IMG/VR virus record: IMGVR_UViG_3300017785_005555
Span: 1-52,865 of that record
DNA from: a virus
Taxonomy: Duplodnaviria > Caudoviricetes
Length of the DNA stretch: 52,865 bases
Direction: 5' to 3' (one strand)
The first letter of the stretch is position 1. Each line of letters starts with the position of its first letter. The notes under the pieces are model-generated. The model made no database searches. It was not told the origin of the DNA and saw nothing but the letters and a program-made list of their open reading frames with translations. Below, one piece after another: positions 2,575 to 47,700 of this stretch. A program made the translations under genes and the position numbers.

Positions 2575-2652
2575 TGGTAGCGGGGGCTGGATTTGAACCA
2601 GCGACTTCCACGGCTATGAACCGTGTCTTCTACCGGGCTGAAATACCCCGCA
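2575..2652 (-). tRNA. tRNA with CAT anticodon (Met/fMet-like; Ile2 not excluded)
   Basis: Minus strand folds to a cloverleaf: acceptor GCGGGG/CCCCGC with U1:U72 mismatch, D-stem UUUC/GAAG, anticodon stem CACGG/CCGUG with loop UUCAUAG, T-arm GCUGG-UUCAAAU-CCAGC, then A-CCA. Confidence 0.92.
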
Positions 2653-13959: not shown

Positions 13960-14171
13960 GAGCCCTCGTAATACCTGCTGCATAGTAGCGCAAGGGCTAC
14001 GCCTCACGACTACATGTAGACGGGCGAAGCCGGCGTTGTACGCCACGAACACGCGACGCGTCTGCATCTCCGGGACACGTAGACGAAGACGCAGGCGAGA
14101 GAACAGCGCGTAGAACCTGGGCTATCCTCATCCGTCTGCAAGTCTACATCATCAGGGGGTTCTCTTAGGGA

Positions 14172-14215
14172 TGGACATAACATAAATATGATAAGATAAT
14201 ACCTATGTTATGGAC
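14172..14215. promoter_or_regulatory. AT-rich inverted repeat in a divergent intergenic region
   Basis: CATAACATA (14176) and TATGTTATG (14204) flank an AT-rich spacer. Confidence 0.55.
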
Positions 14216-14347
14216 AAGGACAGGACTCTCTGGAAGTGCCTCTGACGGCGCTGATAACAGCAGCGTTACGTCAGGTTGAACCTGCGTTATCCCCGTCTGT
14301 ATCTCCCGACGGGTGCGGCGCCGGCTGGACGGTGATACGTCGTGACC

Positions 14348-14863
14348 ATGAAGACACTTCTGTCCATCGACGTGGGCCTGCACGGGCTCGGATGCGGGCA
14401 CTACACCGGGGAAACCCTGGATGCAGGCTGGTATACGCCTCGACCAGGGACCTCGGGCCGCGACCCGGAGGGCTGGCGACGGGTGGCGCTGGCGCTGGAG
14501 GGGTTGGCGCTACAGCCGGACCTCGTGGTGATCGAGACCATGAAGATCTACGACCAGCGACACTGGAAGGGGGACCCCGACGACATCCTCCAGCTACAGG
14601 GCGTGGTCGGGTGCCTGTCCATGCTCTACAGGGGGGCCCGCATCCGGGGGTACCTCCCCCAGGTGTGGAAGGGGCAGGTGCCCGCGCCCGTGCTCGCCGC
14701 CCGCGTCGAGCAGTACCTGGGCGCGCGCGGGTGGAGCGACCGGCTCGTGCTACCCGCTCGGTCGGAGGGCCGCGACCGAAGCGGGGACGTGCTCCATGGG
14801 GTGGGCGTGGGCCTTCACCACCTGGGCCTGATGCACGGGGGCAAGACCGTCAAGCGGGGGTAA
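14348..14863 (+). CDS. RuvC-like Holliday junction resolvase
   Basis: LLSIDVG...G, LVVIE, P..WKG, DVLHGVGVG (RNase H-fold RuvC pattern; last acidic residue appears as His). Confidence 0.75.
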   Translation: MKTLLSIDVGLHGLGCGHYTGETLDAGWYTPRPGTSGRDPEGWRRVALALEGLALQPDLVVIETMKIYDQRHWKGDPDDILQLQGVVGCLSMLYRGARIRGYLPQVWKGQVPAPVLAARVEQYLGARGWSDRLVLPARSEGRDRSGDVLHGVGVGLHHLGLMHGGKTVKRG

Positions 14864-15308
14864 CGGACTTCTTCGGCAGGCGCAGGCCCTTGTTCCAGGT
14901 CCGAGCGTTGGCGACCGTGAAGAGCCGGCCCCGGATGTCCAGCCAGCCGTTCGGCGTGGCCTTCTCCGCAACGACGGCGGCGTACTTCTCGACAATGGCG
15001 AGGGCCGCAGCCAGCTCGCGGCACGCGTCGGTGTGGCGGCTGCCGTCCTCGGGGGCGCCGGCTACCCACTCGCCATCGACGAAGCGGCCGGGGTTGGTGC
15101 CGCAGTAGTCCTTGGGGCGGCCCGCCTTGCCAGTCTCGGCCGCGACCGCCTGCCCGCAGATGCACGGGCGGTACGTGGGGCGGGGGGCGAGCCGCCGGGT
15201 GACGTAGACCCGCGCAGGGGGCGCGCTGTCGCCGCCGCCGGGCGCCGCGGGGGAGAGGCCAGGGAACTGGATGCGGGCGGGGCCAGCGGTGCTGCGGTAG
15301 AGGGGCAT
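14850..15308 (-). CDS. Hypothetical Zn-finger protein
   Basis: CICG...GRPKDYC...C; SD GGAG before MPLYRS. Confidence 0.6.
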   Translation of the reverse strand: MPLYRSTAGPARIQFPGLSPAAPGGGDSAPPARVYVTRRLAPRPTYRPCICGQAVAAETGKAGRPKDYCGTNPGRFVDGEWVAGAPEDGSRHTDACRELAAALAIVEKYAAVVAEKATPNGWLDIRGRLFTVANARTWNKGLRLPKKSVTPA

Positions 15309-15348
15309 GACGGTCACTCCGGGGTTGGATTCTGCCGGTGATATTACC

Positions 15349-15603
15349 CTACGAGCGGAGCGGGCGCAACACCTGGACCGCAGCGTCCCGCTGATAAGAG
15401 GCAAGGCACCGGTTGCAGCACGCGGTCTCGGCGCCGGTGAGAGGGTGGATGATGAGCCAGTACGCGCCGTGGGGGCACGCCATCTGGGCATCGCAGGGGA
15501 GAACCGCCACCGGCGCCGCCGCCCGCACGGGGAGGGCGACCCGCGTGATGAGGCTCGCGGCGGAAGCGGTACGCGTCGGGGTGGGGGTGCTGGTGGTGCT
15601 CAT
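15349..15603 (-). CDS. Hypothetical Cys-rich small protein
   Basis: C....C...CCNRC; follows the upstream gene by 3 nt. Confidence 0.6.
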   Translation of the reverse strand: MSTTSTPTPTRTASAASLITRVALPVRAAAPVAVLPCDAQMACPHGAYWLIIHPLTGAETACCNRCLASYQRDAAVQVLRPLRS

Positions 15604-15606
15604 GAA

Positions 15607-16014
15607 CTACTCCGCGAAGAGGATGGAGAGGGACCGAAGGGCGGTGAAGTGCAGGGCGCGGCCCTCGGGGGAGAGGGAGGCGGCGTACACCAGCACGGCG
15701 TCGCGCACCAGCTCGTGAGGGTTCGCGATGGCGTCCTTACCCCCGATGAGGGCCTCGAACGTGGGAACTTCGCCGAGCAGGATGCGCGTGTCCAGCGGCA
15801 TCGACGTGGCGGCCAGCTTGTACCAGCCCTCGCTCCCAAACTCGGCGGAGGACATGGACAGGGGGACGACGTGCCACGTCCCGGCGGAGGTGCGCGTGTA
15901 CTGCACGCCCGTCACCCAGCCGCTGCCGTTGCTGCCGTAGAAGTAGTCGGGCGGGATGGGCAGGCCCGCGTCGTTAGCGTGCGGGTGCTGATAGGTGGCT
16001 GCGAAGAACTTCAT
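15607..16014 (-). CDS. Hypothetical protein
   Basis: 135 aa, SD GGAGG. Confidence 0.7.
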   Translation of the reverse strand: MKFFAATYQHPHANDAGLPIPPDYFYGSNGSGWVTGVQYTRTSAGTWHVVPLSMSSAEFGSEGWYKLAATSMPLDTRILLGEVPTFEALIGGKDAIANPHELVRDAVLVYAASLSPEGRALHFTALRSLSILFAE

Positions 16015-16044
16015 AAGAACCTCCGTTCCCTGTGCGTTGGAAGT

Positions 16045-16100
16045 GGCCGGGCTTGGGACCGGCCTGCCGCATTGACCCCCGAGGGGAGGGCCCCTCTGCG
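16045..16100 (-). ncRNA. Twister ribozyme, circularly permuted (P5-type-like), copy 1
   Basis: RNA CGCA-GA-GGG-[GCCCUC/GGGGGU hairpin]-C^AA-UGCG-GC-A-GGCCGG-UCCC-AA-GC-CCGGCC; all twister core elements (P1, P2, P4, T1, T2) can form. Confidence 0.85.
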
Positions 16101-16105
16101 AAGGA

Positions 16106-17707
16106 CTACGCCGCCGCCCGGAAGAGGACGGAGACCAGCTCGCCGGCCGCGCGCTCCACCTGGGCGCGCTGCCACTCGCTGATCTGGTTGCTCATGTGCG
16201 AGCGGGTGATGGCGTTGATGAGGTCCGCCAGGGTGTTGCCCGGCTCCTCCTTCCAGCCGGTGAGGAGGGCCTCGGTGAGGACCGCCGCCTTGATGTCCGT
16301 CGCGAGCTTCTTATGCTCGACCGCCCAGGCCAGGGCCTCGGGGACGGTAGCGAACTTCTCCCCCCAAAGCTGGACCGCCTTGACCTCGGTGTTCCGGAGC
16401 ACGCCCCAGGAGTCGGCGAACTGGTTGAACATCTCGACCACCAGCTCCGTCTTGGCGGTGATCTCCGCCGCGACCGACTGCATGTTCCCCCGGTGACGAC
16501 GGCGGAGGAGGTTGGCGCTCGCCTCGCCGATGATGAGGAGGTTGAGGCAGCGGTTACGCCACGCCGTCCCGTCCACGATGATGGAGCCACCGCGCGCGTC
16601 GTTGCTGGAGTACGTCGCGCCGAGCTGGAACACGTCGCCCGCCGCGAAGTCCACCACCCGGTTGGCGTGCCACGTCGCGTTGACGCGGAGGTTGGTGGTC
16701 TCGGGGTCGTAGACCACCGTACCCCGCGCGTCCTCGGCGGCACCGTGCAGGCCGGCGATGATGTCCGTCGCGATGGCGTCGGCGTCGCGCACCCCGTAGG
16801 TCGTGCTCGTGACGGCGAAGACCGAGCGCACCCCGTTGTAGTCGCGGGTGCGGAGCTTCATCGTCTTCGGCGAGCCGTCGGCCGCGACCAGCTCGTTCGA
16901 GTACCGCTCCATCATCTCGTTGAAGAACGAGGCGCGCAGCTCGACCGGCGCCTTCAACAGGACGGGCAGGGCGCGGGGGAAGATGTCGCCCATGCCCTGG
17001 AGCAGGTGCCGGAAGCCGGACTCCTCCACCGCGAGCCCTTCGCCCGAGCCCTTGGTGATGCGCCCGTTGGGGAGCATCCGGAGGCCGGACATCAGGACGG
17101 TGGTGTCGATGCGGTTCTCCGCCGCGACCGCCGCCTTGACGCCTTCGAGCCCGTCGATAACCGGGGTCTGCTCCTCCCAGGCGAGGCGCGAGGTGCGGAA
17201 GTTGTCCTCGCCGACCGCGAGCACCTTCGAGCCGGCGGCGTAGACCGGGGGCGGGAGGGCGATGCCGATGGTGGAGAGCAGCTCCTCGTGGCGGGCGATG
17301 CGCGCGACCGCGACATCCGAGACCACGATGCTGGACTCGCGGCGCCCGGTGGTGCGGCTCGCGTCCGAGTGAAGTACGCCGGCCCCACCATCGGCCACCG
17401 AGGGGGCCGCCGCCTTGCGGGTGCGGGGAGCCTTGACCACCGGGGTGGGGGCGGCGACCGGCGTGACCACCGGGGCGGCGTCGCGAAGGTGAACCGGCGG
17501 GGTGGCGAGGATGCGCGCGTCGGTGGCAGCGGCCTCGGCGTTGAGCGCCTGCACCCAGGCCGGGGCGGGGACGGTCTCGGGGGCGGGGCGGATGCCCAAC
17601 TCGGCGGGGAAGCCGGCGGACGCGAAGGCCGCGCCGACCGCCTCGTAGGTGCCGGTGAGGGAGACGATGCCGGTGGACTTGTGGAAGAGCTGGAAGGTGC
17701 CGTTCAT
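16106..17707 (-). CDS. DUF932/DUF945-like protein
   Basis: VFAVTSTTY and SSNDARGGS..V..TAWRNRCLN...RRRHRG match the DUF932 pattern (NS.DG.S...R..C.N...RH); C-terminal TL.DL.NAITR. Confidence 0.65.
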   Translation of the reverse strand: MNGTFQLFHKSTGIVSLTGTYEAVGAAFASAGFPAELGIRPAPETVPAPAWVQALNAEAAATDARILATPPVHLRDAAPVVTPVAAPTPVVKAPRTRKAAAPSVADGGAGVLHSDASRTTGRRESSIVVSDVAVARIARHEELLSTIGIALPPPVYAAGSKVLAVGEDNFRTSRLAWEEQTPVIDGLEGVKAAVAAENRIDTTVLMSGLRMLPNGRITKGSGEGLAVEESGFRHLLQGMGDIFPRALPVLLKAPVELRASFFNEMMERYSNELVAADGSPKTMKLRTRDYNGVRSVFAVTSTTYGVRDADAIATDIIAGLHGAAEDARGTVVYDPETTNLRVNATWHANRVVDFAAGDVFQLGATYSSNDARGGSIIVDGTAWRNRCLNLLIIGEASANLLRRRHRGNMQSVAAEITAKTELVVEMFNQFADSWGVLRNTEVKAVQLWGEKFATVPEALAWAVEHKKLATDIKAAVLTEALLTGWKEEPGNTLADLINAITRSHMSNQISEWQRAQVERAAGELVSVLFRAAA

Positions 17708-17753
17708 GATGTGCCTCGTGTGCCGTGCCGGTGTAGTCCGGCGTGGTGGAGTA

Positions 17754-17783
17754 CCTCTATTCCCGGTGCGGGCCGGGCGTCAA
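17754..17783 (-). promoter_or_regulatory. Sigma70-like promoter of the DUF932-like gene
   Basis: TTGACG-N18-TAGAGG, same layout as the promoter at 3336-3365. Confidence 0.6.
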
Positions 17784-17802
17784 GGAAGAACTTTATCAAC
17801 AT

Positions 17803-17858
17803 GCTCGGGCTTGGGACCGAGCCGCCGCATTGAGCAGGTTGAACCTGCCCCCTCTGCG
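17803..17858 (-). ncRNA. Twister ribozyme, circularly permuted (P5-type-like), copy 2
   Basis: RNA CGCA-GA-GGG-[GGCAGG/CCUGCU hairpin]-C^AA-UGCG-GC-G-GCUCGG-UCCC-AA-GC-CCGAGC; core identical to copy 1, stems differ with compensatory changes. Confidence 0.88.
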
Positions 17859-17859
17859 A

Positions 17860-18123
17860 TTAGAGACGCTGCCCCGCGGGCTGGATGCGCCCGGCTTGTA
17901 GCAAGGCCCGAGCGGTACGCCCGAAGAACCCCTGGAGAGTCCAGGCCGCGCCGGTGTCCACCAGGAGCTGCCACGCGGCCAGCACCTCCTCCTCGGTGCC
18001 GTCGGTCGCGCCCTCTGCGAGCATCACGGCGTCGAAGAGATCCAGGGTGGGCGCGGAGGTGGTAGCTTCATTGTCGGTGCTCATGGCGGGCGCGGAGGTG
18101 GTAGCTTCATTGTCGGTGCTCAT
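17860..18123 (-). CDS. Small phage early protein (WQ.LVDTG.AW.LQGFFGR) with a duplicated N-terminus
   Basis: SD AAAGGAG; MSTDNEATTSAP occurs twice. Confidence 0.8.
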   Translation of the reverse strand: MSTDNEATTSAPAMSTDNEATTSAPTLDLFDAVMLAEGATDGTEEEVLAAWQLLVDTGAAWTLQGFFGRTARALLQAGRIQPAGQRL

Positions 18124-18130
18124 GGCGGGC
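18049..18130. repeat. 39-bp exact tandem duplication including the start codon
   Basis: gggcgcggaggtggtagcttcattgtcggtgctcatggc occurs twice. Confidence 0.9.
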
Positions 18131-18134
18131 TCCT

Positions 18135-18356
18135 TTAGGTGAGGCGGGTGGCGATGAAGGTGTAGCCGCGGACGCGGGCAGCGTGGGGTGCTTCGTGCGG
18201 CATGGTGTAGGGGTAGGGGATGTCGAAGCCGACGGGGACGAAGCGACCGAGCCAGAAGGGGCGGGGGGCGCCGCGTCCGACGTAGACCTCGGCGGTAGCG
18301 CGGGCGGGGACTTCAACCTCCAGCCAGTAGCCGGTGGTGGGGCGGGGAAGGGGCAT
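18135..18356 (-). CDS. Hypothetical protein
   Basis: MPLPRPTTGYWLEV..., SD GGAG, 73 aa. Confidence 0.6.
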   Translation of the reverse strand: MPLPRPTTGYWLEVEVPARATAEVYVGRGAPRPFWLGRFVPVGFDIPYPYTMPHEAPHAARVRGYTFIATRLT

Positions 18357-18387
18357 CAGGTCTCCAGGTGGTGATGGTCGGGGAAGG

Positions 18388-18880
18388 AAGCAGTCAGGGG
18401 AGTCGAACCCCTCGTTGCTGCACACTCGGGGATTGGCGGACCAACGCCTATCGCCTCATGTTGGTCGCAGCTCCGGCGCCAAGCTCCTGCATGTGAACGA
18501 CGGCGTGAGCCTTGTAACTCACGCGGGCATTACGAAGTTCTCTCTTAGTCAGGCTAATATGAGAACCCCGTACTCTGCAACCGTCAGGTCCAGAATGTCC
18601 CCATCTTAGGGGTAAGTCGGGGGCCAGGGTTGTCTGCCCGGCCGGCGCGGCGGAAGCCCGCGCTCGTATCACTGACCACTGGCTTGGGGGTGATGTCAAC
18701 CAGGGCCGAGGCCCCGTCCCCTCGGGCGCCGCCGCCCTTGGTGAAGTCAACATCGCCCGCTGGGCCCGGCTTAGCAACAACTTCCTTAGCCTCCTCGTAT
18801 GAACTGTAGGCAAACTCACAGATGCCCTCGCGCTCGGGCCTGTAGCCGGGCACGCTCGCGGTTACGACGGCTCAACTGCT
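18388..18880 (-). ncRNA. Candidate ~490-nt structured ncRNA closed by a tRNA-like domain
   Basis: 5' AGCAGUU pairs with 3' GACUGCU, which directly follows the T-arm AGGGG-UUCGACU-CCCCU; many internal hairpins; CATAAT -10 at 18891-18896; no credible ORF. Confidence 0.65.
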
Positions 18881-18904
18881 GATAAGGGCCATTATGTAAA
18901 GTAA

Positions 18905-18983
18905 GGTGTTGGTTCTGCCTGTAAGTGCAGGTAGAACCTCGGGAAGCGGACTCACGACGGTGTTCCGTTTGGCCTGTAAGTGC
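18905..18983. repeat. Direct repeat GCCTGTAAGTGC (x2), each preceded by GGTGTT
   Basis: Copies at 18917-18928 and 18972-18983, 55 bp apart. Confidence 0.7.
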
Positions 18984-19490
18984 CCGGAATCACTACGATA
19001 ATCTTTCCAGCGGCCCCGTCGTGACCGGGCTCCGGCCCTGGCGGCGCCGCCGTGAACAGCTTCTGCCCACGTTCGGCACCCGGCCCCGCCGCTCGACGAG
19101 CTGCCCGGCGGCACGGAACTTGCAAGGGGCCCAGCACCCCGTCCGTAGCGAAGAACTTCCTTGGCACGGCTCTTGCTACACGCGCGCGCGCCCGGAACAA
19201 TGCTGCGTCCGCCGACCTCGGGGCCGGACCCCGAACGGGAATAACCAAGGAAGTACGCCCACTTGGGTTTTTAGAGCATGGCCGCGTCACGACGCAGCCG
19301 ACCTCGCGCAGGGCCCCTGGGAAGCTCCAGGAGCGCGACGGCGATTCGAGGTACCCCCACGTACGGCTCCAGGCGCCCAGCGCGCTCCTGGTGAATCCAA
19401 GCGTTCCTGCACTTGCGACGAACCCCCCTACTTCCGACCAGCCGGTCAGTCTGCCTGCCCGTCCCCCTGGTCCGGCCCGCCCCTCTCCTC

Positions 19491-19563
19491 GGGGACCGGC
19501 GCCGCCCTCCGCGGGGAGGAGGGGGACCGGCGCCGCCCTCCGCGGGGAGGAGGGGGACCGGCG
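19491..19563. repeat. 31-bp GC-rich tandem repeat (~2.3 copies)
   Basis: ggggaccggcgccgccctccgcggggaggag. Confidence 0.9.
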
Positions 19564-19882
19564 GAGGGGCTGCTCGGCCACCAGGAGAGGGCCACCACCA
19601 GGGGCAGGCCACCAGGGTGGCGGCGGGGGCGGGGACGACGGCGGCGACGGGGGGCTCCCCACCTGGGCGACCTGGAGGGGGGTTCCGTGTGCCCTCGAAA
19701 CTCTTAGTAGTTTATATCAAAGTTAGACTGTTATGACTTCTATTCTACGAGGCGGGGGCCCGATGTCCTTGACCAGGACCCTGATCCGGGCTCTTTGTTT
19801 GTTGAGCGCGCGACCGAAGTTCTCACTCGTATCACTTGATACATAGCAGAGATAGCGGTAGGATCGGGGCGTGAGGTATACG

Positions 19883-20113
19883 ATGATTCTGTCCTTGATC
19901 TTGACCCTGCTCGCGTGCGCGCCCTCGGACCAGCCCACCGAGAACGGAGAGTGCGCGCTGTACGTGGACCCGTCCGTCACCATGGTAGATGGCGTGCTCG
20001 CGCCGGAAGCCTGCTACGAGCACACGGACGACGGCGTGGACTACTCGCTCTGCTGCCCCAAGGGCTGGAAGCCGGTCGGGCTCACGCAGGCCGGGGAGGT
20101 CGTGTGCCTGTAG
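19883..20113 (+). CDS. Small Cys-rich lipoprotein
   Basis: MILSLILTLLA-C lipobox; five further Cys; SD GAGG. Confidence 0.7.
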   Translation: MILSLILTLLACAPSDQPTENGECALYVDPSVTMVDGVLAPEACYEHTDDGVDYSLCCPKGWKPVGLTQAGEVVCL

Positions 20114-20183
20114 AGGGTGCGCCTCCGGTCGAGCCTCCGGCGCAGCTCCCCTTGGCGAAGGGGCCCGACTAACTCTTTAGGGG

Positions 20184-20213
20184 TTGCGCCTCGGGCGGAA
20201 CCGGTGATACGAT
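20184..20213 (+). promoter_or_regulatory. Sigma70-like promoter, probably giving a leaderless mRNA
   Basis: TTGCGC-N18-TACGAT with extended TG; ATG 7 nt after the -10. Confidence 0.55.
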
Positions 20214-20220
20214 GCGAGCC

Positions 20221-20856
20221 ATGGCCTCGCTCGTGTACAAGACGGTCGCCCCCCTGCCCGGTATCGACCGGCAGGTGGTGGTCGTGCCCGGTCACGCCGA
20301 GTCCGTCACCATCGGCGACCGGGGTGAACCCGCCGTCGAGGGGGAGTACATCATCGAGACCCGCGAGTCTCGGCGGCGCAACCGCATCGTCGCCCTGGTC
20401 GGCCAGGGGTGGGCGTACGAGAACATCGTCAAGAAGGTCTGCGCGGAGTTCGGGTGCCAGCGCGGGTCGATCGAGAAGGACATCGAGGCTCTCGGGGAAG
20501 TTGTTCGCAAGCTGAACGACTCCGAAGACCTGATGGACCTGACGATGGCCGACGCCATCCAGAAGCTCCGCCGGCTCATGGCGGTGAACTTCAAGAACGC
20601 CACCATGACGATCGACCCTGACGGGCTCGACGGCAAGACCGTGGAGGCCCTGTTCAAGGCGCAGATCAACGCGTCCAAGGAAGCCCGTGGGGCGGCCGAG
20701 ACGCTTACGAAGATCTTCGGTGTCCGCTCGAAGCGGTGGACGCCGAAGCAGCAGATCGAGGTCACTCCCGTCGTTGGCGGAACGACGGAGCAGCAGGACG
20801 CCGTTCGTCGGCTTCTTGGTGAAGAAGACATTCCGCGTATTGAGGAACAGCCGTGA
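20221..20856 (+). CDS. Putative terminase small subunit (HTH)
   Basis: RRNRIVALVGQGWAYENIVKKVCAEFGCQRGSIEKDI is HTH-like, followed by helices; lies upstream of TerL. Confidence 0.55.
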   Translation: MASLVYKTVAPLPGIDRQVVVVPGHAESVTIGDRGEPAVEGEYIIETRESRRRNRIVALVGQGWAYENIVKKVCAEFGCQRGSIEKDIEALGEVVRKLNDSEDLMDLTMADAIQKLRRLMAVNFKNATMTIDPDGLDGKTVEALFKAQINASKEARGAAETLTKIFGVRSKRWTPKQQIEVTPVVGGTTEQQDAVRRLLGEEDIPRIEEQP

Positions 20857-21527
20857 TGCCCGTATCCATCGAACTCTTGAACAAGACGTACGCCGACCTC
20901 TTTGGTCCCAAGGGCTGCTTCTGCCAGAAGCAGCCCGTCGCGGTTCCGCTCGACGTGTCCGTGGCGTGGGACCCGGCGCTGCCGGGCAAGGACACGTCCG
21001 TGCTGTACATCATCGACACGAGCAAGATCGCGTTCGATCACGGCGGCGCCATCAAGATCCTGTCCTCGTACCCCCGCGCCAAGCTGGTGGAGCGGCTGGC
21101 AGGGCCGCAGCCCCAGATCGTCCACTTCTCCGAGGTGGGCGCGGACGGCATCGACATGCCGCGCGCGCTGCGCGAGTTCGCCAAGCACCTGTACGTCAAG
21201 CCGATCACCATCCCCGCGTCCGAGATGATGGCGGGGCTCGGGGTCACGAGCATGTCCGACAAGGACCAGCTCTTCCAGCTCGGGTGGCGGAACAAGTACG
21301 GCAACCTGGACGACACGTTTGCCACGAAGCACACCCGTGACTTCCGCGAGATGTACCGCCGGCTCCTGGGCCTTGGCGCTACCCCCGGCAAGCCGCTCGG
21401 CATCTACGGGGACAAGTACCCGCGCGCGTTCGGCGGCATGAAGGGGTTCACCCCCTACACCGCGTCCACCCCCGGCCGCGCCCTCGGTGCCTACCCCGGC
21501 CCGCTGCGCAGCGCGGTGCGCTCGTGA
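20856..21527 (+). CDS. Hypothetical protein
   Basis: ~223 aa, GC3-biased, coupled to the upstream stop. Confidence 0.75.
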   Translation: MPVSIELLNKTYADLFGPKGCFCQKQPVAVPLDVSVAWDPALPGKDTSVLYIIDTSKIAFDHGGAIKILSSYPRAKLVERLAGPQPQIVHFSEVGADGIDMPRALREFAKHLYVKPITIPASEMMAGLGVTSMSDKDQLFQLGWRNKYGNLDDTFATKHTRDFREMYRRLLGLGATPGKPLGIYGDKYPRAFGGMKGFTPYTASTPGRALGAYPGPLRSAVRS

Positions 21528-36409: not shown

Positions 36410-38719
36410 ATGGCTACGCCTAACGGGGAGAACGACGAACTGCGCATGGCCGGCTTCAAGGCCGCCGTGCCCGCCGTCGTGGAAGCGATCAAGTCCAACC
36501 GCGAGATCGTGGGGACCGCGCGCGAACAGCAGTCCGCGAACTGGCGTGCCGCCGTGGGCGCGGTCGGCAAGTGGGAGGCCGCGCGCCGCACCGGCGAGGG
36601 GAAGGCGATGATCGACGCGCTGGTCGATCTGACGGCCATGGAGCTGGCGGACAGCCCGGTGGATCGCGAGATGCTGCGACGCGTCGAGGAACAGGTGCGC
36701 CTCGCGCAACCCGGCGTGTCTCCGTCCGCCGAGTCGTTCAAGCGGGCGATGTGGCAGGTGTACTCCGAGCAGAACCCGGCACCCGAAGCGGACCCGCGCA
36801 CGCTCGGCACGTTCCGTGCGATGCAGGACAAGTACCCCTGGTCGGACTCGTACATCACCGACAAGGACAAGGTGGCCTGGGCCAACTACCAGCGCATCGT
36901 CAAGCAGGCCGACATCCAGGCCGGCGAGGTCGAGCGGATGGAGAAGGTGCGCGAGCAGGCCCGGTCCATGGCCGACTACCTCGCCAGGAACCCCGACGCC
37001 CAGCCGACGGAGGTGCAGCAGTACATGAAGAACCTGCCCCTGCTCGGGGACTCCGCCGCCATGCAGGGCATCGCCGCGTACGCGAAGAAGCAGGCGAACG
37101 CTGACCCCGTGCTGTCGAAGGAGGAGCGCGAGCAGTACGAACAGAACGACGCCTTGCGCAAGACCTTGGAGCGCAAGGTGATCGACGACGCGAACACCGA
37201 GTCCGAGCGGGACCGGATGGCGCGGATCATCGCCAAGCCCAAGTTCCAGTGGTGGGCGAAGATGAACGGCTTCGACGTGGGCACGGTCAGCCCCAAGGAG
37301 GAGGGGAAGAACTACGGGCCCGACGTGCTTACGCCCGTTGGCGAGTACACTTCCGGACCCGACGACATGGAGGCGATCAAGTACGCGATGGGCCAGCGGA
37401 AGCGCCGTGGCGACCAGGACATGTTCTGGCAGCACCGCCGGCTGCCGGGCACGCCCACGTTCGGGCAGGTGACGGTCAAGTACGGCACCGTGCCGGACGC
37501 CGCGTACAAGGGCGAGGGGGGCACGTACAAGTTCATCGAAGAGAACGGGCAGCGGACCTACCTCAAACCTGACGAAGTTGAAGCCCGGCAGGCGGCGCTG
37601 GAGCAGCAGGCGAAGAAGTGGGTGGAGGAGATGAAGGCGGAGCCCACCCCGGAGAACGTGGCGCGGATGCTCGACGGTTTCGCCGGCAAGATCCAGGAGA
37701 CCACGGACGCACCCCCCAAGGACACCACCCAGGTGATCCGAGGGCAGTTCATGGCGCCGCGTGCAGGCGATCCCGAGGGGTCGGTGCGCTTGAAGGGGTA
37801 CCCCGACCCGTTCATGCCGGACCAGATCGTGGGGGAGCCCGAGGTTACGTCCGGCGGCACCGAGCGGCAGACCCTGGCGCGCTTCGCGTCCGAGCTGGCG
37901 AAGCGGTCGGCGGCGAACCGCGAGGAGCGGCAGCGCGAGACGGCGCCGCGCCCGAGGGCGGATGAGCTGGCGGCCACGCTGGTGCCCGAGCTGGACGGCA
38001 AGGGCGACAAGAACCGTCGCGAAGATGTTTCCTACAAGCGGGAGATGAACGATCGGCGGGACGCGGAGTACGCTGCCGACATCGCGGACGAGCAGAAGCG
38101 GGATCCTCGCGCCGTGCTGTTCGACCTGGACGCGTTGAAGCGGCCGGACCTCCGGCAGCAGGAGAACGCGGACGCCGTGGCGGAGTCCACGGGAGCAGCC
38201 GTGCGCTCGGGAGGACGTACGGAGCGAGGCAAGGCCGCGGACGTAGCGCGGGAAGCGTTCAACGCACGGATGGTGGCCGGGATCACCCAGGCGCCCCCGC
38301 GCGTGGAGGCGTACGACACCAGCAAGGACGCCGCGTACGACACCTCGCAGATGAAGCGCCCGGTGCCCCCGGTGAACCCCCTGGCGCAGCGGGGCGCACC
38401 CCCGGCAGGGACGAACACGCCGGCCCCCGCGCCTACGGTGCCGGGCGCGCGCAGCGCGGGACAGGTGCCGCCCGCTCCGGACCTGGGCCCCAAGCCCACG
38501 CCGCCGCGCAAGACGCTCACGGGGCAGCAGCGAGAAGCAGTCAAGCCCCAGCGTCTCGGGCCGCCTGCGATGGAGGAGCCCGATTTCGAGTTCGGCGATT
38601 CCTCCCAGGACATTGAGGTGGAGGGTGCCACGCGCGACACGCTCGTCACGCCGAGTGCCTCGACCACCATGCCGAAGAAGCGCGGGAGTCAACGCGCCGG
38701 GTTGCTGGGAACGGGGTAG
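36410..38719 (+). CDS. Putative ejection (internal virion) protein
   Basis: 769 aa, helical, between the pilot protein and the giant protein; SD GGAGG. Confidence 0.6.
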   Translation: MATPNGENDELRMAGFKAAVPAVVEAIKSNREIVGTAREQQSANWRAAVGAVGKWEAARRTGEGKAMIDALVDLTAMELADSPVDREMLRRVEEQVRLAQPGVSPSAESFKRAMWQVYSEQNPAPEADPRTLGTFRAMQDKYPWSDSYITDKDKVAWANYQRIVKQADIQAGEVERMEKVREQARSMADYLARNPDAQPTEVQQYMKNLPLLGDSAAMQGIAAYAKKQANADPVLSKEEREQYEQNDALRKTLERKVIDDANTESERDRMARIIAKPKFQWWAKMNGFDVGTVSPKEEGKNYGPDVLTPVGEYTSGPDDMEAIKYAMGQRKRRGDQDMFWQHRRLPGTPTFGQVTVKYGTVPDAAYKGEGGTYKFIEENGQRTYLKPDEVEARQAALEQQAKKWVEEMKAEPTPENVARMLDGFAGKIQETTDAPPKDTTQVIRGQFMAPRAGDPEGSVRLKGYPDPFMPDQIVGEPEVTSGGTERQTLARFASELAKRSAANREERQRETAPRPRADELAATLVPELDGKGDKNRREDVSYKREMNDRRDAEYAADIADEQKRDPRAVLFDLDALKRPDLRQQENADAVAESTGAAVRSGGRTERGKAADVAREAFNARMVAGITQAPPRVEAYDTSKDAAYDTSQMKRPVPPVNPLAQRGAPPAGTNTPAPAPTVPGARSAGQVPPAPDLGPKPTPPRKTLTGQQREAVKPQRLGPPAMEEPDFEFGDSSQDIEVEGATRDTLVTPSASTTMPKKRGSQRAGLLGTG

Positions 38720-38744
38720 ACTCCTACCACCGACGAGTGCGACC

Positions 38745-41700
38745 ATGGCTGATCTGCGACCGGAAGACATCGAGCGCGCGAAGAAGTTGTTTGCTACGGG
38801 AGCCGGCGTGGCCCCTGCGGAGCCGGTCCCCGCGGCACCCGCCCCGCCGAAGGCGTCTGCCGCGGTGCCGCCCAAGGCCACCCCGCGCCCCGTCACCTAC
38901 GAGATGGACGCGAAGGAGCGCAAGGCGGCCAAGGCCGGCGCCTCGGCACCGTCGTGGGACCGCTTGGCGGTAGAAGCGGGGTTGGCCCCTCCTGCGCTCA
39001 TGTCCAAGCTCGCGCCCGCCCTCGACGCCATGGAGCGGGACCCGCTGGACATGAAGGCCCTGGGGGCGAAGCCCGAGGTGGACCCGGAGCTGTTCCTGCG
39101 CGTCGAGGAGACGGACGTGAAGCGGGCGATCCGCAACGCGGAACGCAGCCCCGGCACGATGGACGCCATCAAGGGGCTCGTAGAGCTGGCGACGCCGTTC
39201 AAGGCCGCCGTTCAGCCGGAGCAGGTGGAGGCCGAGGCTAAAGTCAAGCGCCTGGAGATGGCGAACGCCTCCGAGGAAGAACTTGCCCAGGCCCGCGCCG
39301 AGGTAGCCGCCCAGAAGGAGCGCACGAAGCGCGGTGGTGTCAACGTCTACGAGCCGCGGGGCGTGGTGGACACGCTGGGCGACATCGACCGCGGGGGGCC
39401 GGCGGCCTTCATGCGAGACCCCAACAGCGTCATCACCGAAGAGCAGGTTGCGCGCCTGGAAGCCGCCGCTGGTGACGCCGAGGGTAGCGTCTCGGATACG
39501 GACAACACGGACCCCGACTACGACGTGGCGGACGGGCCCCGTACGGCGGCCGGCTCGAAGGAGCTGGCTGTCACCCTGCGTAAGCAGGCCACGGCAGCGA
39601 GGGCGCGTCTGGACAACCAGCGCGGTGCCATGACCACCAACCTCGTGGTGGAGCTGGGCGCCCCTGGTGCCGAGCAGGCGCGCACGCTCATGGCGCAGGT
39701 GACGGAAGGTACGGCGCCGAGTCGGGCCAACCAGGAGTTCCTGGCGCGGTTCTCTGCGTGGTGGTTCAAGCAGGAGGGCGGGGAGCGCGCCGCGTTGACC
39801 GGCCCGGAGCGCGCGGCGTTGCAGGCAGCCGCCGACGCGCAGGCCAAGCGTGCCCTCTTCTCGCTGCGGCAGGGTGGGTGGTGGCCCACCGAGATCTCCG
39901 AAGGAGACGTGAAGGGGCGCGGCAAGCTGGACCTGTTGGACTACGTGAAGGCGGTCGTTCTGCCCCGTGCGGAAGCTACCCCCAGCGGGCAGTCCGTACG
40001 CACGGAGGGGCCCGCAGGCTACGTGTTCAACCGTATGAACCTGCCTATTTCGGCGGCGGCCGAAGTGTATCGGGGGGTCCTCGGCGGGGACATGGACGCG
40101 TACCGGATGCTTCGCGAGAAGGGCGGTTTCCTCGAAGCTCTCGCGGACTTCGAGGAGCTGCCCCGCTTGAAGAAGTGGGCCATGGCGGATGAAGGCACGC
40201 TGGAGTGGACTGCTGCGTGGTCCTTCGTGTGGCTCGGTCTCATCGGAGAGGTGGTCACGCCGGACGGGTTCACCGCCTTGTCCAAGATCGCGGAGATCCC
40301 CGCTTATCTGGCGACCGCCGACCGAGGCTTGGCCGCTGCTCGTGCCGCCAAGGGCGCCGGCTGGGTGGAGCAGGTGCGCGCCGTGAAGGGTGCTGTCGCG
40401 TCCGACGCGTTGCAGTACGCGGACGCGCTGGAGGGGAGCAACCCCGCCTTGGCGCGGATCATCCGCGACCGCGTGAAGGGTCTCGTCGGTCTGACCGAGG
40501 AAGGCCGGGCTGTCCAGACGAAGCTCGGCGACACGCCGCGCACGGGCAAGAGCGGCGCGAAACAACTTCTCCGGGATGGCGTGCGCAGCGACAACGCGGA
40601 CGACGCACGCGCGCTGGACTCGTTGCGGTCGGGTCGGTACGACGAGATCTACGGCAAGGCCAGCAGGGAGGCCATCGCGTCCCTCGACCAGCCGGCCGAG
40701 GGCGCCCGCGCCGCGCGTTCTGCGGACGAGCTTCTGCCCGATGCTCCGCCGGACGCGACGGACGACGCGATGCGCGTGTTCGGTGAGCCCGTGTCGGCCG
40801 GCGTGGCGCGCGCCATGGTGACGGCGGACGACGTGGCGGCGGCACTTCGGGCAGCCTCGAAGGGTAAGGCGCCGTCGGCCATGCGTAAGCTCGCCGCGAA
40901 CATCATCACGCTCTTGGAGCGCAACCCCGAGCTGGCCCCCGTCGTCAAGCAGGTGCGGCAGCGTGTATCGGCGTCCGTCACGGCGGGCACGGTGGACATG
41001 GCGGACCTCCGCGTCGAGATGCTCCGCCGCTTGTTGCAGATCAAGCCGGACGCGGCCCAGCGGGTGCTCGCCAGGGCGGAAGCAGCAGTCGCCAAGCGGG
41101 CGGCGCAGGTGACTGCCCTGGAGCTGGAGATCGCCCGCCGGGACCCTGCCCGCAAGGCCGCCGCCCAGGCGGTGGATGCCAAGCAGGCGGCGGTGAACGC
41201 GGCGCGCGCCGAAGTGGAGAGCATGAAGGCCGGACCCCGGCAGGAACCTGCGATCAACCTGGACGGCGGCCCCACCGTGCGCGCGGGCACCCCTTCGGAC
41301 GCGGCCTCGTTGGAGAAGACGGAGCCCCGCATCGAGCGCGACATCACCCAGCCGGGTGTGCGACCGACGCCGGCCGCGAACGAAGCCACGCCGGTGGTGA
41401 GGCGGGCGGGGACCCCGGCCGTGAACGAAGCCACGCCGGTGATGCGGCGGGCAGGGGCCCAGGCCGCTGTCGTCAAGCTCGATCCGGCGGCCACCGTGGT
41501 GGAGCGTACGGACGCGCACCGGGCCATCGGCCTGGAAGCCGCGCTGGAGCCGCTCGACGAGGTGAAGGCGGCACAGCGCGCCGGGCGGTACGGACCCGCC
41601 GAGCGGCTGCACTTCGCCCACGCGGGGGAGCCCTACCTCCGTCCCGACTTCATCCAACGCCCCCCGATGGAGTACGCGGCCAGCAAGCGGGCCCACCTGC

Positions 41701-44700
41701 TGTTCCTGTCCCTCCTGCGCGAGCACTCCAACGACTTGGCGACGGGCAAGTACCTTGCCGGTGCCGACGCGCTGGACTTCGCGACCAAGTTCAACCTGCC
41801 CTACTACGAGGCGTGGTTCACGCCGCGTGACTTCTTCCGGCTCGAAGTGCGCGAGGTCGGTGGCAGCGGGAAAGTTCGTTCTTACGGGAGCCTGTCCCGC
41901 CAGGAGCAGGTGGGCAAGACCTGGGAGATCGTCAACGTGAAGTGGACGCCCCAGGCGGAAGACTTCTGGAAGCAGCTCGACGACATCGCCGCCGCCAACC
42001 CGGAACGCCCTCGCGCGCGCGCCATGAACGAGTACCTGCGCAGCCTCCTGCCGTGGTCGGACCCGCTCGCCACCGCGGAGGATGTCGGCTTGGTGCGCCT
42101 GTCCGACACCGTGTTCGTGCGCAACCCCGAGGTGGCGAAACAGGTGGGCCCGTTGAAGCAGCCCGTTGAGGTGCTGGAAGACGGCGTGCGCAAGATCCGG
42201 TTTGAGGATGCCGTGTCCGACGGGCTCTCCGCCGAGGTGGTGGGGTTCAAGGACGGCAAGGTCATGGTCCAGCCCATGGAGTTCGTGGACGGGTCGCCCC
42301 GGCGCTCCACCCGGCACGGTCCCGTTGCCGTGTCTGTCGAAGATCTTGCCTACATGGAGCGCGGCCGGGTGCCCCGCACGCGCGAGGGCCGGAAGTTCTC
42401 GTACGTGGGGCCTCGGACGGATGCCGAGTGGCGTGAACTGCGGGCGGCCGAGGACCGGATGCCCGGTGCGCGGTCCATGCGGTACAAGGACCAGGAGCGA
42501 TTCCTGGAGCTGAACCCGCCCAAGCGCCCGACCGCCGAGGAGTTCGACTTCCCGGTGTCCCAGCTCGACCCGGAGGCGCGCGAAGCCGCCATCCGGGCCA
42601 TGGATGCCGCCGGTCGCGCGCGAGGCGTCCCCACGCCGCGGTTCGAGGACGGTGTGAAGGCCGCACCGGCACGTCCCGCCACCCCCGCGCCTGTCGCAGC
42701 CCCGCCCCAGGCGAGTCCTGTTGCCGGGGGCACGGGTCTGGCCGAGCTGGGTGGGGCGGGCGCCGCCATCAGCGACAACCTGTACGTCATGCTGCTCGAC
42801 AAGGCGCGCAAGGGCGACGTGCTGGAGGGCGGCCAGCGGTTGCTCGTGCTCCAGATGGCGGTAGCGTTGCAGCGGCAGGGCGTGGACCTGTCCCTGGACG
42901 TGATGAAGCGTCTGGCGCAGGAGGTGATGGCGATCCGAGGGCAGAACGTGACGGGGGGCGCCTTCCAGCAGGCGGTGAAGGACGCGCTCTCCCGCGTGCA
43001 GGCAGATGTCGCCAAGGCGCAGCCCTCCGAGGGGAACCGCGTGGCCCCCGCGGTTGTTTCCGCCGGCAATAAGGACCGGGAGGTCACGGAGGCGACCAGC
43101 AAGGTGGATCGGATCGAGGCCGGGGCCGGCGAGCGTGCGGGCGCCAAGCTGCGCTACGCCGAGGCCGACCTGGAGCGCGCCCAGAACACCCTGCGCGGGC
43201 TGGGCGAGGGACTCCCCGCGGACATCCCGGAGGTCATGCGCGCTCGGCTGGCGGGCCGGCGGTCTGCTCTCGCCAACGCGCGCCGGGCACAGGCCGAGGC
43301 GGACGCCATGGCGCGCGCCAGCGCCCAGGTGCGGGCCGAAATGCGTGGGGCGTTGAAGCTGGAGCAGTACGTGCGCAAGGGCACGGCTGACGACTTGGCG
43401 AACAGCGCGCGGCACGCCGCTCTCGTCAAGGGCTCTGGCTCGGTGCCGGCGTCCACGGCGGCGACCCCGGCGCGGCGCATCTTCGAGTCCGGCCTGTACA
43501 AGACGCTCGACCGGTACGGCGTGAGCGGGGCGGGTCCCGCTGTCGCGGAGCTGCACAGCTCTCTGGCGCGCACCCTGTCCAAGCTCAACCCCGAGCGGTT
43601 CCCGACTCCCGACGCGTACTACGCCTCGATGATCGTGCGGCAGGGTGACGTGGCTCCGATGGAGGACGCTCACCGACTTCTTCGCCAGAGCGACCTGACG
43701 GACCTCAACGGCAAGCCCCTCTACCGCGCCGTCTCCACGGAGGAGGAGCTGGCCCAGGTGGTAGGCGACCTGCCGGAGCCGGAGATCTGGGAGCTGGACC
43801 ACTACAGCGTGAACAAGGACCTGGACGTGCTGCGGTCGGACGCCCACGGCAAGTACGGCACGCAGCGGTCGTCGGAGTTCAACCCCGGAAACCGGGCGAA
43901 CGACTGGAACTATCTCGGACGCGTGATGTTCTACCCCGGCGGCGCCAAGCCGGAGAGCATGATCGCCTACGGGGCGCAGCAGAAGTACACGACCCAGATC
44001 CGGGCGCGCATCTACGACTTCAAGACGGACCCGCGAAAGATCTTCCCCATCGCGCTGGCGGCGTACCGAAAGATGGAGGCCATGCCGTACAGGGAGCGGA
44101 TGAAGGTCCGTGGCTACGGGGGGCCGGACCCGTTCAACGAGTTCGAGCGCCTGCTCGTGGACCTGGGCTACGACGGGTACAAGTGGCCCATGGGGGCGCC
44201 GGCTGGCGCCGAGCCCACCATCGTCGTGACCATCCTCAACCGCGACGTTCCCATCTCGACCGGCGTGTTCCCGGTACTCGTCCCGAACGGGCCGCTGGGT
44301 GCCGTGCGCAAGGGCTCCAAGCTCGACGTGTCGCCCGACGTGGTGGGGGTGCTGAACCGACGCATGACGCTGGCCCAGGCAGAAGTCGCGTTGCGAGCGC
44401 CGGTGGAAGAACACGCCGTTCTGTTCGTCAACGGCACCCAGGCGGGGCGCTGGGGGCCGGAGCAAACGCGCGCCGCGGGGCACAACCCCCGGAACTCGTG
44501 CGCCATCGACACCGCCGTGCTGGAGCAGGTGCGCGGCCAGGGTGCGGTGTTCACGCACAACCACCCCAACGGCGGCATCCTTAGCCCGGAAGATCTGGCT
44601 GTCGCCTCGTTTGGCGACCTCGGCGAGATGCGAGCGGTACCTTCTGGGGAGAAGGGCTGGGACGACGCGTGGTTCGTGCAGCGGCCCGTCGAGGGTTGGG

Positions 44701-47700
44701 CCTCCCCGGCAGCCATCCATCAAGCATGGTCCGAGGCAGGCAAGAAGGCGTTCGCTGTCGCCCGACGGCAGATGACCGAGTTCATCGTTGCCGCCGGAGG
44801 CGATCCCTACAACGGGTCAATGGTGGGTTATACGAAGGAGAAGTGGCAGCAGCTTCTCAACGATGCCCTTGAACAGGAGTGGCGAAGTGGCCGATACCCC
44901 GAACTCCCCGAACTCTTCCGTGGTTTTACTCGATCGGAACTGGCCTCCGACGTATCCCGAGTGGACGCCGGCTCCGTTCCCGAGCGCGCTGGCGGAGTCC
45001 AGCTCCCCCTCCCTGGCATCCGGACCCTTGCCTCCGCCGAAGGCGCGGATCTCGGGCGGGTCGGACCTGGATTGGGACAAGTTCGGCTCCCCGGAGGGGG
45101 CACCCTCGCCGACATCCACGCCCAGCACCCCGACGCCGCCCGCGGCATCTTCCGGCAGCTCGGCCTCCGAGTAGAGCCGGGCCGGGCCACCGGCGCAGAA
45201 CTTCGTATCTACCCGCTCTTCGACGCGTTCGGCACCGAGCGCGCCGTGGTGGAGGAGCGGGTGCGCGCGTGGCTCAACACGGTCGGCTGGGACTTCAAGG
45301 TCTTCGGCCCCGATGAGGCGGGCGCCGGCTTCTCGCCCCCGAACTTCCGCGACTTCAACTACCAGAACAAGAACGTCTGGATCTTCCAGCCGATGGACCC
45401 CAACGGGTCCTTCCGCGACTACAACTACACGCTGCCCTGGCGCGTGACGCACGAGGTCGCGCACGGGCTGGTGAACGACGCCATCTCCGACCTGTACGGC
45501 GGCCTCGGCAAGCGGCAGGGCGCGCTCGGCGTCGCCACGAAGTTCAACGGCAGGGACGTGCCGGCCCTCACGCTGGCCGACGCGCTGCGTGCCGTGGAGT
45601 GGGAGGCCGAGACGTTCAAGGAGCAGCGCGCCATCCTGGAGCGGGACCTCGGCATCTCCATTACGGAAGAGGCGTTCCGCCAGGAGAACGGGCTGAACAT
45701 GAGCGACGCCGTGTGGCGCGCGATGACGGGGGGCTTCTCGGACCCGTCCGACCTGGGCGTGCTTCCGACGGCGGTTCACCCTGCGGATGTTCTTCGCAAC
45801 GCCCGCAACACCATGCGCGCGGCGGCCCTGGAGATGGGGCTCGACATGGGCGAGACGTTCGGCATCGAGATGAAGGCCGAGCGCGCCGCGCAGGCATCGG
45901 CGGACGGTGTGGCCTGGATCGTGGGCGAAGCTCTGGCACGCAGGGAGGCAGGCGCCACCAAGGAGCAGTTCGCCCGGTGGCTGACCGACACGATGTACAA
46001 GGCGCGCAAGGCGCCCGGCTCCTCCCCCTGGGTGCAGGGCGTGGAGGAAGGCGCTCGCATGGTGGTGCAGGCGGCGGGCATGGACGCGGACAAGGGCACG
46101 CGCTTCCTGGCGGTCGCGTGGGGCAACAGCTTGGCGACGGCGGACGAGATTGCAGGGTTGAATCGCCGGCAGTATTGGCAGGGCATGGCGGTGGACCGCT
46201 ACCCGCCGGACACCGACCGGCTGGCGGCGTCCGTGCGCACGGCTGGCGAGAACGTGGACCCCGAGGACATCCAGGGGCTGATCGACTTCCAGATGGGCCA
46301 GGGCATCATGACGTTCTACCGCACGGGGAACTTCTCCACGGTGCTGCACGAGCCCGCCCACATGTTGCGCCGCATCCTGCCGCCGGACATGCTCGCGGAG
46401 CTGGAGCAGGCCCTGGGCGTCGTGGACGGGAACTGGACGCGGTACCAGGAAGAACAGTTCGTGGCGATGTGGGAGAAGGCGGCGGCCGGCGGGTTCCTTT
46501 CGACCGGCAACCCCGCGCTCGACCGGTCGTTCCGGCAGGTGACGAACACCTTGCGCGCCGTGGCCGAGGACAGCGGCATCGCCGTCTCCCCCACCGTGCA
46601 GCGGCTGTTCGACACGCTGCACCGGGACACGGCGGGGCCGAAGGGACCGATGATCCCCGGCCGGGGGTCGCTGGCGGATGCCGAGCAGGAGCAGCGCGCG
46701 CTGGACGAGGCGTTCCGCCTGTCGAGCCGGTCCCTCCTTCGCGCCACCTGGGAAGACCGGATGGGCCGGCTGCGCCAGTGGCTGCGTCCCGCGCGCGACG
46801 TGCTCGACGGGTCGTTGAAGGAGGTGGTGAAGAACCTCATCCGTAAGGAAGAAGCCGAGCTGTCGGCGTTCAACAAGCGGCTGGCGGACGCCATCACGCG
46901 CACGAAGACGGACCCGCTGCGCGCCCTCGTGACGGACGGCGATGACCTGTCTGTAGACTTCTTCGCTGCCCTTGATGAGGGGGCGGACGGGCGGCTGTTG
47001 GACGCGGCAGCCGTGGCCTTCCTGGACCGCACGAAGATCCCCCTCTCCTCGGACGACATGCGCCTGCTCCGGGAGGCGTTGCGCACGCGTGGCTCGATGG
47101 AGGAGGTGGTGGCGGCGTTGCAGGAGGCATCACTGGCTGTCGTCAGTCGCCAGTTGGAGTACCAGGGGCGCGCGATGCGGGACACCTACACGGGCAAGGC
47201 CCTGCTCACCCAGGCGGCGGGCACCATGGCGTTGCACCACCGGTTCGAGAAGGCGGGGTTCGGTGTCGGCGCCGTGCTCCACAGCGAGGACGCCAAGGCG
47301 GCCTCGGAGTGGCTGGCGGGCACGTCCCGTTCCGACCGGGGGCGTCAGATCGTGCTGGGTGCGATGGAGGACCCGTTCAACTACATCCCGCCGACCAGCG
47401 GGGTGGCTGGGCTGCGGCGCGAGCAGATCTCCCCGTTCGGAACGACGGGCACAAAGTCCCGCGTCGGTAGCACCGTAGCAAAGATCTCCGGCACGCTGGA
47501 GGGGTCTGATGTCTACGTGCCGCGCGTCGTGCGGGACCGGCTCGTGGCCCAGATCGACGCCGTGGAGCAGGCGGCCCAGCCCCCGCTCGGTACGAAGCTG
47601 CTGCTCCGGTACTGGAAGCAGGGGCTCACGTCCGGTGTGCTCCTGGCCCGGCCCACCTACTACCTCAACAACGTGTTCGGCGACTTCGACCAGATCGCAA

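Follow-up and report, generated by a model that had tools for sequence, protein, structure and literature searches.

Twister-P5 ribozymes abutting stop codons in phage operons: a pair around a DUF932-like gene and its probable role in splitting the non-structural transcript

The twister class of self-cleaving ribozymes was reportedly described by Roth et al. in 2014. The class and its enrichment near other ribozymes and phage genes are already documented (PMC10085705, PMC6765202), the mechanism of the small self-cleaving ribozymes is given as leaving 5′-hydroxyl and 2′,3′-cyclic phosphate ends (PMC6765202), and the role of such ribozymes in bacteria and phages is treated as an open question (PMC6765202, PMC10085705). 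The nearest described arrangement involves another class: Perreault et al. (2011) found that prophage genes, ardA among them, are flanked singly or in short blocks by multiple hammerhead ribozymes; these cleave in vitro and in Escherichia coli, and both processing into single-gene mRNAs and the formation of circular or spliced products were proposed for them (PMC3088659). Segmentation of this kind has likewise been suggested for twisters in section 13 of a review (PMC6765202). Here we analyze the complete tailed-phage record IMGVR_UViG_3300017785_005555 (hereinafter the window: the whole 52,865-bp stretch, which has a G+C content of 68% and carries direct terminal repeats), in which two twister ribozymes bracket a gene for a DUF932-like protein. 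We find that this pair belongs to a wider series of twisters placed at stop codons in phages, and that the arrangement is most likely, by analogy, the twister counterpart of the 2011 hammerhead arrangement (PMC3088659).

A search of the window with the Rfam covariance models returned two full-length matches to Twister-P5 (RF02684; model positions 1-58 of 58 in both, gathering score 37.6). These are ribozyme 1 at 17858-17805 (51.1 bits, E = 9e-8) and ribozyme 2 at 16100-16047 (49.4 bits, E = 2e-7), both on the minus strand, which score 64.8 and 61.5 bits, respectively, with our own twister model R1. No other ribozyme match was recovered by Rfam in the whole 52,865 nucleotides (nt), either at the gathering level or at E<=5. 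A chance origin of the two matches can be excluded, because the Rfam Twister-P5 model has no match in 14 control genomes and the best score of R1 in about 579 kb (122 loci, discussed below) is only 13.5 bits. On sequence criteria, both elements are genuine twister motifs of type P5. An earlier note on this DNA had recognized a twister core and a permuted ribozyme type in each, and both assignments are upheld; its 56-nt spans (17803-17858 and 16045-16100) capture the elements but extend 2 nt beyond the Rfam matches on the 3′ side.

In the RF02684 alignment both copies display the permuted helix order P2a-P1-P2b-P4, with P1 as a closed hairpin, and the minimum-free-energy folds of both reproduce P2, P1 and P4. 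Ribozyme 1 consists of P2 (CGCA/UGCG), the P1 hairpin, the C^AA site, T2, and a P4 hairpin that holds the T1 partner CCC. P2 and the T1 pseudoknot (GGG/CCC, pairing 3/3 in each) are identical between the copies; P1 and P4 are unrelated in the two, yet fully paired, as the earlier note had maintained and both the alignment and the folds bear out. Both copies also carry the T2 letters (GC after P2 with GC of the loop) and every column that is invariant across the 42 twisters aligned below (A28, A29, G42, T43, A47, A48, C51). Thus, they share with RF02684 twisters the same P2, P1, P4, T1, T2, core letters and (predicted here) N^AA cleavage site, and show no structural departure from them; no P5 stem is visible in the window flanks, and the nucleotide before the cut, N-1, is a C. 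The predicted cut lies at C^AA in both copies, as located by the UAA of the model: counted on the sequence along the RF02684 alignment, the scissile bonds would be C17832/A17831 in ribozyme 1 and C16074/A16073 in ribozyme 2, on the minus strand, and cleavage at both would release a monocistronic RNA of 1,758 nt (16074-17831, minus strand; 17831-16074+1), in agreement with the cuts and product given in the earlier note. The 5′ end of this RNA is predicted to be a hydroxyl followed by the P4 hairpin, and its 3′ end the P1 hairpin plus one nucleotide with a 2′,3′-cyclic phosphate.

The same ribozyme recurs elsewhere among phages. A pattern scan of IMG/VR with twister core motifs yielded 14 loci from 13 other phage records, with 40 Twister-P5 matches by Rfam, all on one strand per record; no other ribozyme class was found by Rfam around these twisters at the 14 loci. 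When these 40 are aligned with the two from the window, 90.7% of the cells of the 42-sequence alignment pair, as against 70.3% in shuffles, and none of 500 shuffles reaches 90.7%. Changes on both sides are seen in 18 of the 20 pairs, and sliding the partners by one column about halves the pairing, to below 50%. Both pseudoknots, T1 and T2, covary across the 42 sequences, with T1 pairing 3/3 in 42/42, including six different compensated variants. Counted over whole records at E<=0.001, three complete phage genomes of 48-57 kb have 9, 6 and 8 twisters (7, 6 and 8 above the gathering score), and the remaining records have 8 and 5 (two fragments), 3 (one record) and 1 (seven records); within a record the twisters lie on the same strand throughout and are clustered over a few kb. 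The window pair is a small case of this general same-strand twister series in phages.

Moreover, the twisters follow a placement rule. In 34 of 43 the ribozyme is preceded by an open frame of 50 codons or more, which stops no more than 12 nt upstream of it or overlaps it by up to 2 nt, and in 29 of those 34 the gap from stop codon to ribozyme is -2 to +2 nt; random positions satisfy the rule in 716 of 8,600 trials (8.3%). The window conforms closely, as the earlier note had remarked in saying that each element starts a few nt past a stop codon: the TAA of an upstream open reading frame (ORF) is followed at 1 nt by ribozyme 1, and the TAG of the DUF932-like ORF at 5 nt by ribozyme 2. On the other side of a twister, the distance to the start of the next long ORF is usually between a few and about 35 nt, and the segments between twisters mostly hold one ORF each. 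These results demonstrate the motifs, the covariation within them and the rule of placement. As a separate observation, the upstream stop overlaps the first one or two ribozyme letters in 7 of the 43 twisters (e.g., L139:13901-13956 and L014:21-77), one form of this being a TAG that runs into AGCA.

These observations favor co-transcriptional segmentation, that is, the splitting of a non-structural operon into insulated single-gene mRNAs, to which we assign a probability of roughly 0.65. From them we infer that the ribozymes cleave in vivo, that the three genes around them are co-transcribed, and that mRNA stability or expression is affected. Under this reading, the twisters would punctuate the long minus-strand transcript of the non-structural arm, each 54-nt motif folding behind the RNA polymerase and cutting itself at C^AA. 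The upstream message would keep a minimal 3′ tail, namely the GC-rich P1 hairpin with its 2′,3′-cyclic phosphate, and the downstream message would open with a 5′-hydroxyl and the P4 hairpin, followed after a short spacer by the ribosome-binding site and start codon of the next gene. Separate RNAs would result for the DUF7417 gene upstream of ribozyme 1, the DUF932-like gene and the genes downstream, with their translation start regions and decay freed from neighboring cistrons, so that the ribozyme would work as a natural insulator or operon-splitting device. No intrinsic terminator is found in 14000-21000, where 2.7 would be expected from shuffles; hence, the twisters may supply the only defined 3′ ends there. 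Since the stop codon is where the ribozyme begins, P2a and T1a would, speculatively, be covered by a ribosome in the act of terminating, and it is conceivable that cleavage of a fresh transcript awaits release of the ribosome. Engineered insulators rest on the principle proposed here, in that self-cleavage between or after cistrons uncouples their expression from the sequence context; they are synthetic, whereas the arrangement here is natural and conserved. RiboJ is a ribozyme insulator of this type. Ribozyme insulators and 3′-untranslated-region ribozymes engineered in bacteria were treated by Felletti et al. in 2017 (PMC6765202, PMC5502269).

The genes that adjoin twisters vary, and include those for ArdC-like, RadC and major capsid proteins, together with DUF932 genes in three further records. 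In L003 (3373-4438, minus strand) an ArdC-like anti-restriction gene (ArdcN + MPTase-PolyVal, 307 aa) has a Twister-P5 on both sides, which echoes the hammerhead-flanked ardA of Agrobacterium (PMC3088659). In L008 (1270-2418, minus strand) and L013 (320-1466, plus strand), which come from two phages, one 100% and the other 93% complete, the DUF932 genes are orthologues with 75% identity, and the sole twister of each record lies 1-3 nt after the DUF932 gene; the arrangement thus does not require a pair. A neighborhood with such early-type functions (ArdC, RadC and DUF932) also lends itself to another interpretation, namely a timed shut-off in which cleavage would serve to destabilize the transcript by exposing a 5′-hydroxyl to a host 5′ exonuclease, limiting early and possibly anti-defence genes to a brief period of expression; indeed, the glmS ribozyme destabilizes its transcript in Gram-positive bacteria (PMC6765202). 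We consider this unlikely. The timing could not come from a constitutive fast ribozyme alone, and a terminal hairpin is retained on each cleavage product in the folds. Furthermore, the element also occurs outside early genes, since one Twister-P5 starts 4 nt past the stop codon of a major capsid protein gene (L004:2088-3517, plus strand), for which high and lasting expression would be expected.

The variable neighbors, the range in copy number from 1 to 9 per record, and the occurrence of the twister in phages with no evident protein relationship to the window could together suggest a selfish or neutral passenger, one that, as a small and mobile intergenic element, would spread within and between phage genomes and be tolerated with no role in expression. 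With regard to relatedness, no protein common to the window and the other twister-bearing phages could be detected in the regions compared (a tblastn search with 33 window proteins, run on 13 loci from those records, gave one weak match). However, a neutral insert would keep neither structure, orientation nor position relative to the stop codon, and all three are kept: the structure is maintained through many compensatory changes, also between orthologous sites (the P1 of the L008 and L013 twisters is entirely changed yet fully paired), the orientation always matches that of the genes, and the position with respect to the stop codon is very strict. Variants in the natural population point the same way. 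In freshwater DNA runs, variants within the ribozymes are confined to the P1 stem-loop of ribozyme 2, where a G.U pair becomes G-C, that U is deleted, or one base is added to the loop, thus sparing or improving the pairing. Hence, we regard a passenger as quite improbable. In one of these runs (X4), a contig that belongs to another organism of that freshwater sample agrees with ribozyme 2 in the 3′ half alone (16046-16078) and then continues into a different P1 and core, which implies that other twister-bearing phages share the habitat.

Several points weigh against segmentation as the preferred reading. The self-cleavage of both ribozymes is a prediction, and N-1 is C in both copies, U being the commoner base, although C is also found in 14 of the 42 aligned ribozymes. 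The co-transcription on which the scheme depends is assumed: the nearest minus-strand promoter-like site (19769-19742) lies about 1.9 kb upstream. The leader of the DUF932-like gene is, at 97 nt, unusually long for a spacer between a twister and a start codon, a length that the scheme leaves unexplained. The runs listed as containing the region 15900-18000 are 13 freshwater DNA runs, none being recorded as RNA (one further run from the same sample contained next to none of this region). The benefit of splitting the operon is likewise putative, and whether a 5′-hydroxyl end stabilizes or destabilizes the message depends on the RNases of the host. In hosts with RNase J, a 5′-hydroxyl end promotes decay, as in the precedent of glmS, and stabilization would therefore be unsafe to claim. 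Of the mRNA segmentation and stabilization that the earlier note had offered as its simpler interpretation, the comparative evidence thus favors the first and leaves the second aside.

That note had put first a more elaborate interpretation, in which the pair forms a self-excising and possibly circular cassette. On a full version of this reading, the ends of the 1,758-nt RNA would dock as a hybrid twister and be sealed by the ribozyme or by a host RtcB-type ligase, and the DUF932-like protein would be translated from a circle proof against exonucleases. The geometry fits. The excised RNA would have P2b, T2 and P4 with the T1 partner at its 5′ end and P2a, T1a and P1 at its 3′ end, and the 3′ half of ribozyme 1 joined with the 5′ half of ribozyme 2 gives P2 4/4 and T1 3/3, so that the complementary halves reported by the earlier note are indeed present at both ends. 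The predicted ends are, moreover, the substrates joined by RtcB (PMC8782182), which is common in bacteria (10 of the 14 control genomes). However, the hybrid halves match in the window because both copies carry the consensus core. Among the other phages, fully matched hybrids are formed by 13 of 27 adjacent pairs, as against 41% of random between-phage pairs; fully matched halves within a single ribozyme are seen in 33 of 42. Three neighbor pairs have P2 at only 1/4, and of the 7 adjacent pairs in which a T1 variant takes part, 4 are mismatched there. The hybrid statistics hence speak for compensatory evolution within each ribozyme and not between neighbors. In addition, single-copy phages exist, in which excision is impossible as only one twister is present.

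The physical side of the circle is also difficult. Only P2 (4 bp) and T1 (3 bp) could hold together the ends of a 1.7-kb RNA, there being no P5 stem or long flank pairing, and sealing the ends would rebuild a contiguous and complete consensus twister, which should then cleave again. Consistent with this, ligated adapters were lost again with ribozymes that stay folded (PMC8782182). The known circle-forming systems are instructive here. In both Tornado and the plant retrozymes, a same-orientation ribozyme pair releases an RNA with 5′-hydroxyl and 2′,3′-cyclic phosphate ends, as predicted for the window. In Tornado, the ribozymes are discarded and the ends are held by a designed stem. In the retrozymes, the ribozyme forms part of the repeat, and retrotransposition proceeds through the circle as an intermediate (PMC6765202, PMC5680766). 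Unlike in these systems, ligation in the window would restore an intact ribozyme, no stem would join the ends, and the neighbors are not co-adapted; a Tornado- or viroid-like circle would presumably need to be free of an active self-cleaving site or to hide it, and the sealed RNA would do neither.

Searches for partners and parallels of such a circle were negative. An RtcB gene was searched for and is absent from this phage and from four series-bearing phages. No twister was found with our own model at 122 loci that encode relatives of the DUF932-like protein (at most 45% identical, the three closest relatives lying outside this set), and 40 of these loci, scanned with all of Rfam, had no ribozyme of any class. 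For the hammerhead series in prophages, it was reported that circles were sought and none detected, as 'data not shown' (PMC3088659). The contigs of four DNA runs contain no back-joined junction, though being DNA they are silent on RNA. Taken together, the lack of co-adaptation between neighbors, the single-copy phages and the expected re-cleavage leave the self-excising circular cassette unsupported and very unlikely, though not disproved. One might still picture an equilibrium of cleaving and resealing, in which host RtcB or the hybrid twister transiently closes the 1,758-nt message into a translatable circle, but this too we consider a long shot. If it were true, the transient circle would shield an early DUF932-like, possibly anti-defence, message from exonucleases, and any gene between two compatible twisters in the phage series could behave likewise.

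With regard to the genes, the ORF upstream of ribozyme 1 (17860-18123, minus strand) encodes an 87-aa protein of the DUF7417 family (phrog_3908). The bracketed ORF (16106-17707, minus strand) encodes a 533-aa protein, with a third-position G+C content of 0.96 and 21 homologues. It scores 20.2 bits against the Pfam DUF932 model (PF06067), which is below the 23-bit cut-off, and 6 of the 21 family members match DUF932 at E<=0.01. Foldseek comparison of its AlphaFold model (pLDDT 78.2) with BFVD gives DUF932 proteins as the top matches, with E of 1e-10 to 2e-9 and probability 1.00, at template-modeling (TM) scores of only 0.35-0.47. Against PDB folds the best match of the model has E of 0.16, a PDB sequence-profile search with the protein found nothing, a PHROGs search returned no family, and a single-protein scan of viral contigs gave no relative; its closest relatives by BLASTP, P0002-P0004, are 57-72% identical. 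Judged from family matches and the model, the protein is a remote relative of DUF932, and the label DUF932-like of the earlier note can be kept in that remote sense. The ORF downstream of ribozyme 2 (15607-16014, minus strand) encodes a 135-aa protein of no family; 32 nt separate the ribozyme from its ATG, which has a GGAGG ahead of it.

The 97-nt leader between ribozyme 1 and the ATG of the 533-aa ORF (17708-17804, minus strand) is AT-richer than its surroundings and has GAGG 7 nt ahead of the ATG. The earlier note had placed an internal promoter in it, at 17754-17783, for which we find no support: a sigma-70 scan finds no promoter-like site in the leader, including this stretch, where by eye a TTGACG is accompanied by a -10 hexamer with at most 3/6 matches. 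The leader is filled by a 32-codon ORF (17704-17802, minus strand), which opens 3 nt past ribozyme 1 and ends in a TGA overlapping the start codon of the DUF932-like gene (ATGA). A coding role for this ORF is improbable, given a third-position G+C of only about 0.59.

In the wider genome, the minus-strand arm, from about 20.3 kb down to base 121, comprises the non-structural genes, including those for a family A DNA polymerase, a PD-(D/E)XK nuclease and a VapE-like primase/helicase; a tRNA-Met (CAT) gene lies immediately upstream of the polymerase gene (2575-2652, minus strand). The plus-strand arm has long structural-type ORFs, among them a single open frame of 3,676 codons (38613-49643, plus strand), which is very long for a 53-kb phage. 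The region 18430-19740 (about 1.3 kb) is without clear codon periodicity, its ORFs being junk-like; it contains a perfect 31-nt tandem duplication (19491-19552) and adjoins divergent promoter-like sites at 19769-19742 (minus strand) and 19836-19864 (plus strand). An Rfam search of this region gave no match; a role in regulation or as an origin is conceivable, as is an unknown RNA. By blastn against 50,697 phage records, 15500-18500 has no match, and the 54-nt ribozyme gives only chance-level matches within genes, all with E of at least 1; no cultured pair of host and phage came to light.

Set beside the hammerhead series, the twisters present the same picture of same-strand ribozymes between phage genes, with flanked genes that are not constant (PMC3088659). 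The two differ in the class of ribozyme, and the present analysis adds the quantified abutment to stop codons and up to 8 copies above the gathering score; activity has been shown for the hammerhead series (PMC3088659) and is predicted for the twisters here. Our literature search found no paper joining twister and DUF932 and none on multiple twisters in phages, and for twister self-cleavage in polycistronic phage RNA it found only the 2019 review. In the literature searched, original twister papers and supplements aside, three aspects are unreported: complete phages with a series of Twister-P5 ribozymes, of which as many as 8 exceed the gathering score, the quantified stop-codon rule, and the recurrent neighborhood of ArdC, RadC and DUF932 genes.

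With its two twisters, the three genes around them and a complete genome of 52.9 kb, the window offers a minimal case of an arrangement with clear regularities: the ribozyme starts at or near the upstream stop codon, always lies on the coding strand, is present in 1-9 copies per record, and repeatedly has ArdC, RadC and DUF932 genes among its neighbors. The comparison also takes away the main support for the more exciting but unsupported circular-RNA reading. Confirmation of the segmentation of phage operons by these twisters would define a natural operon-splitting part, along with a rule for finding more of them.

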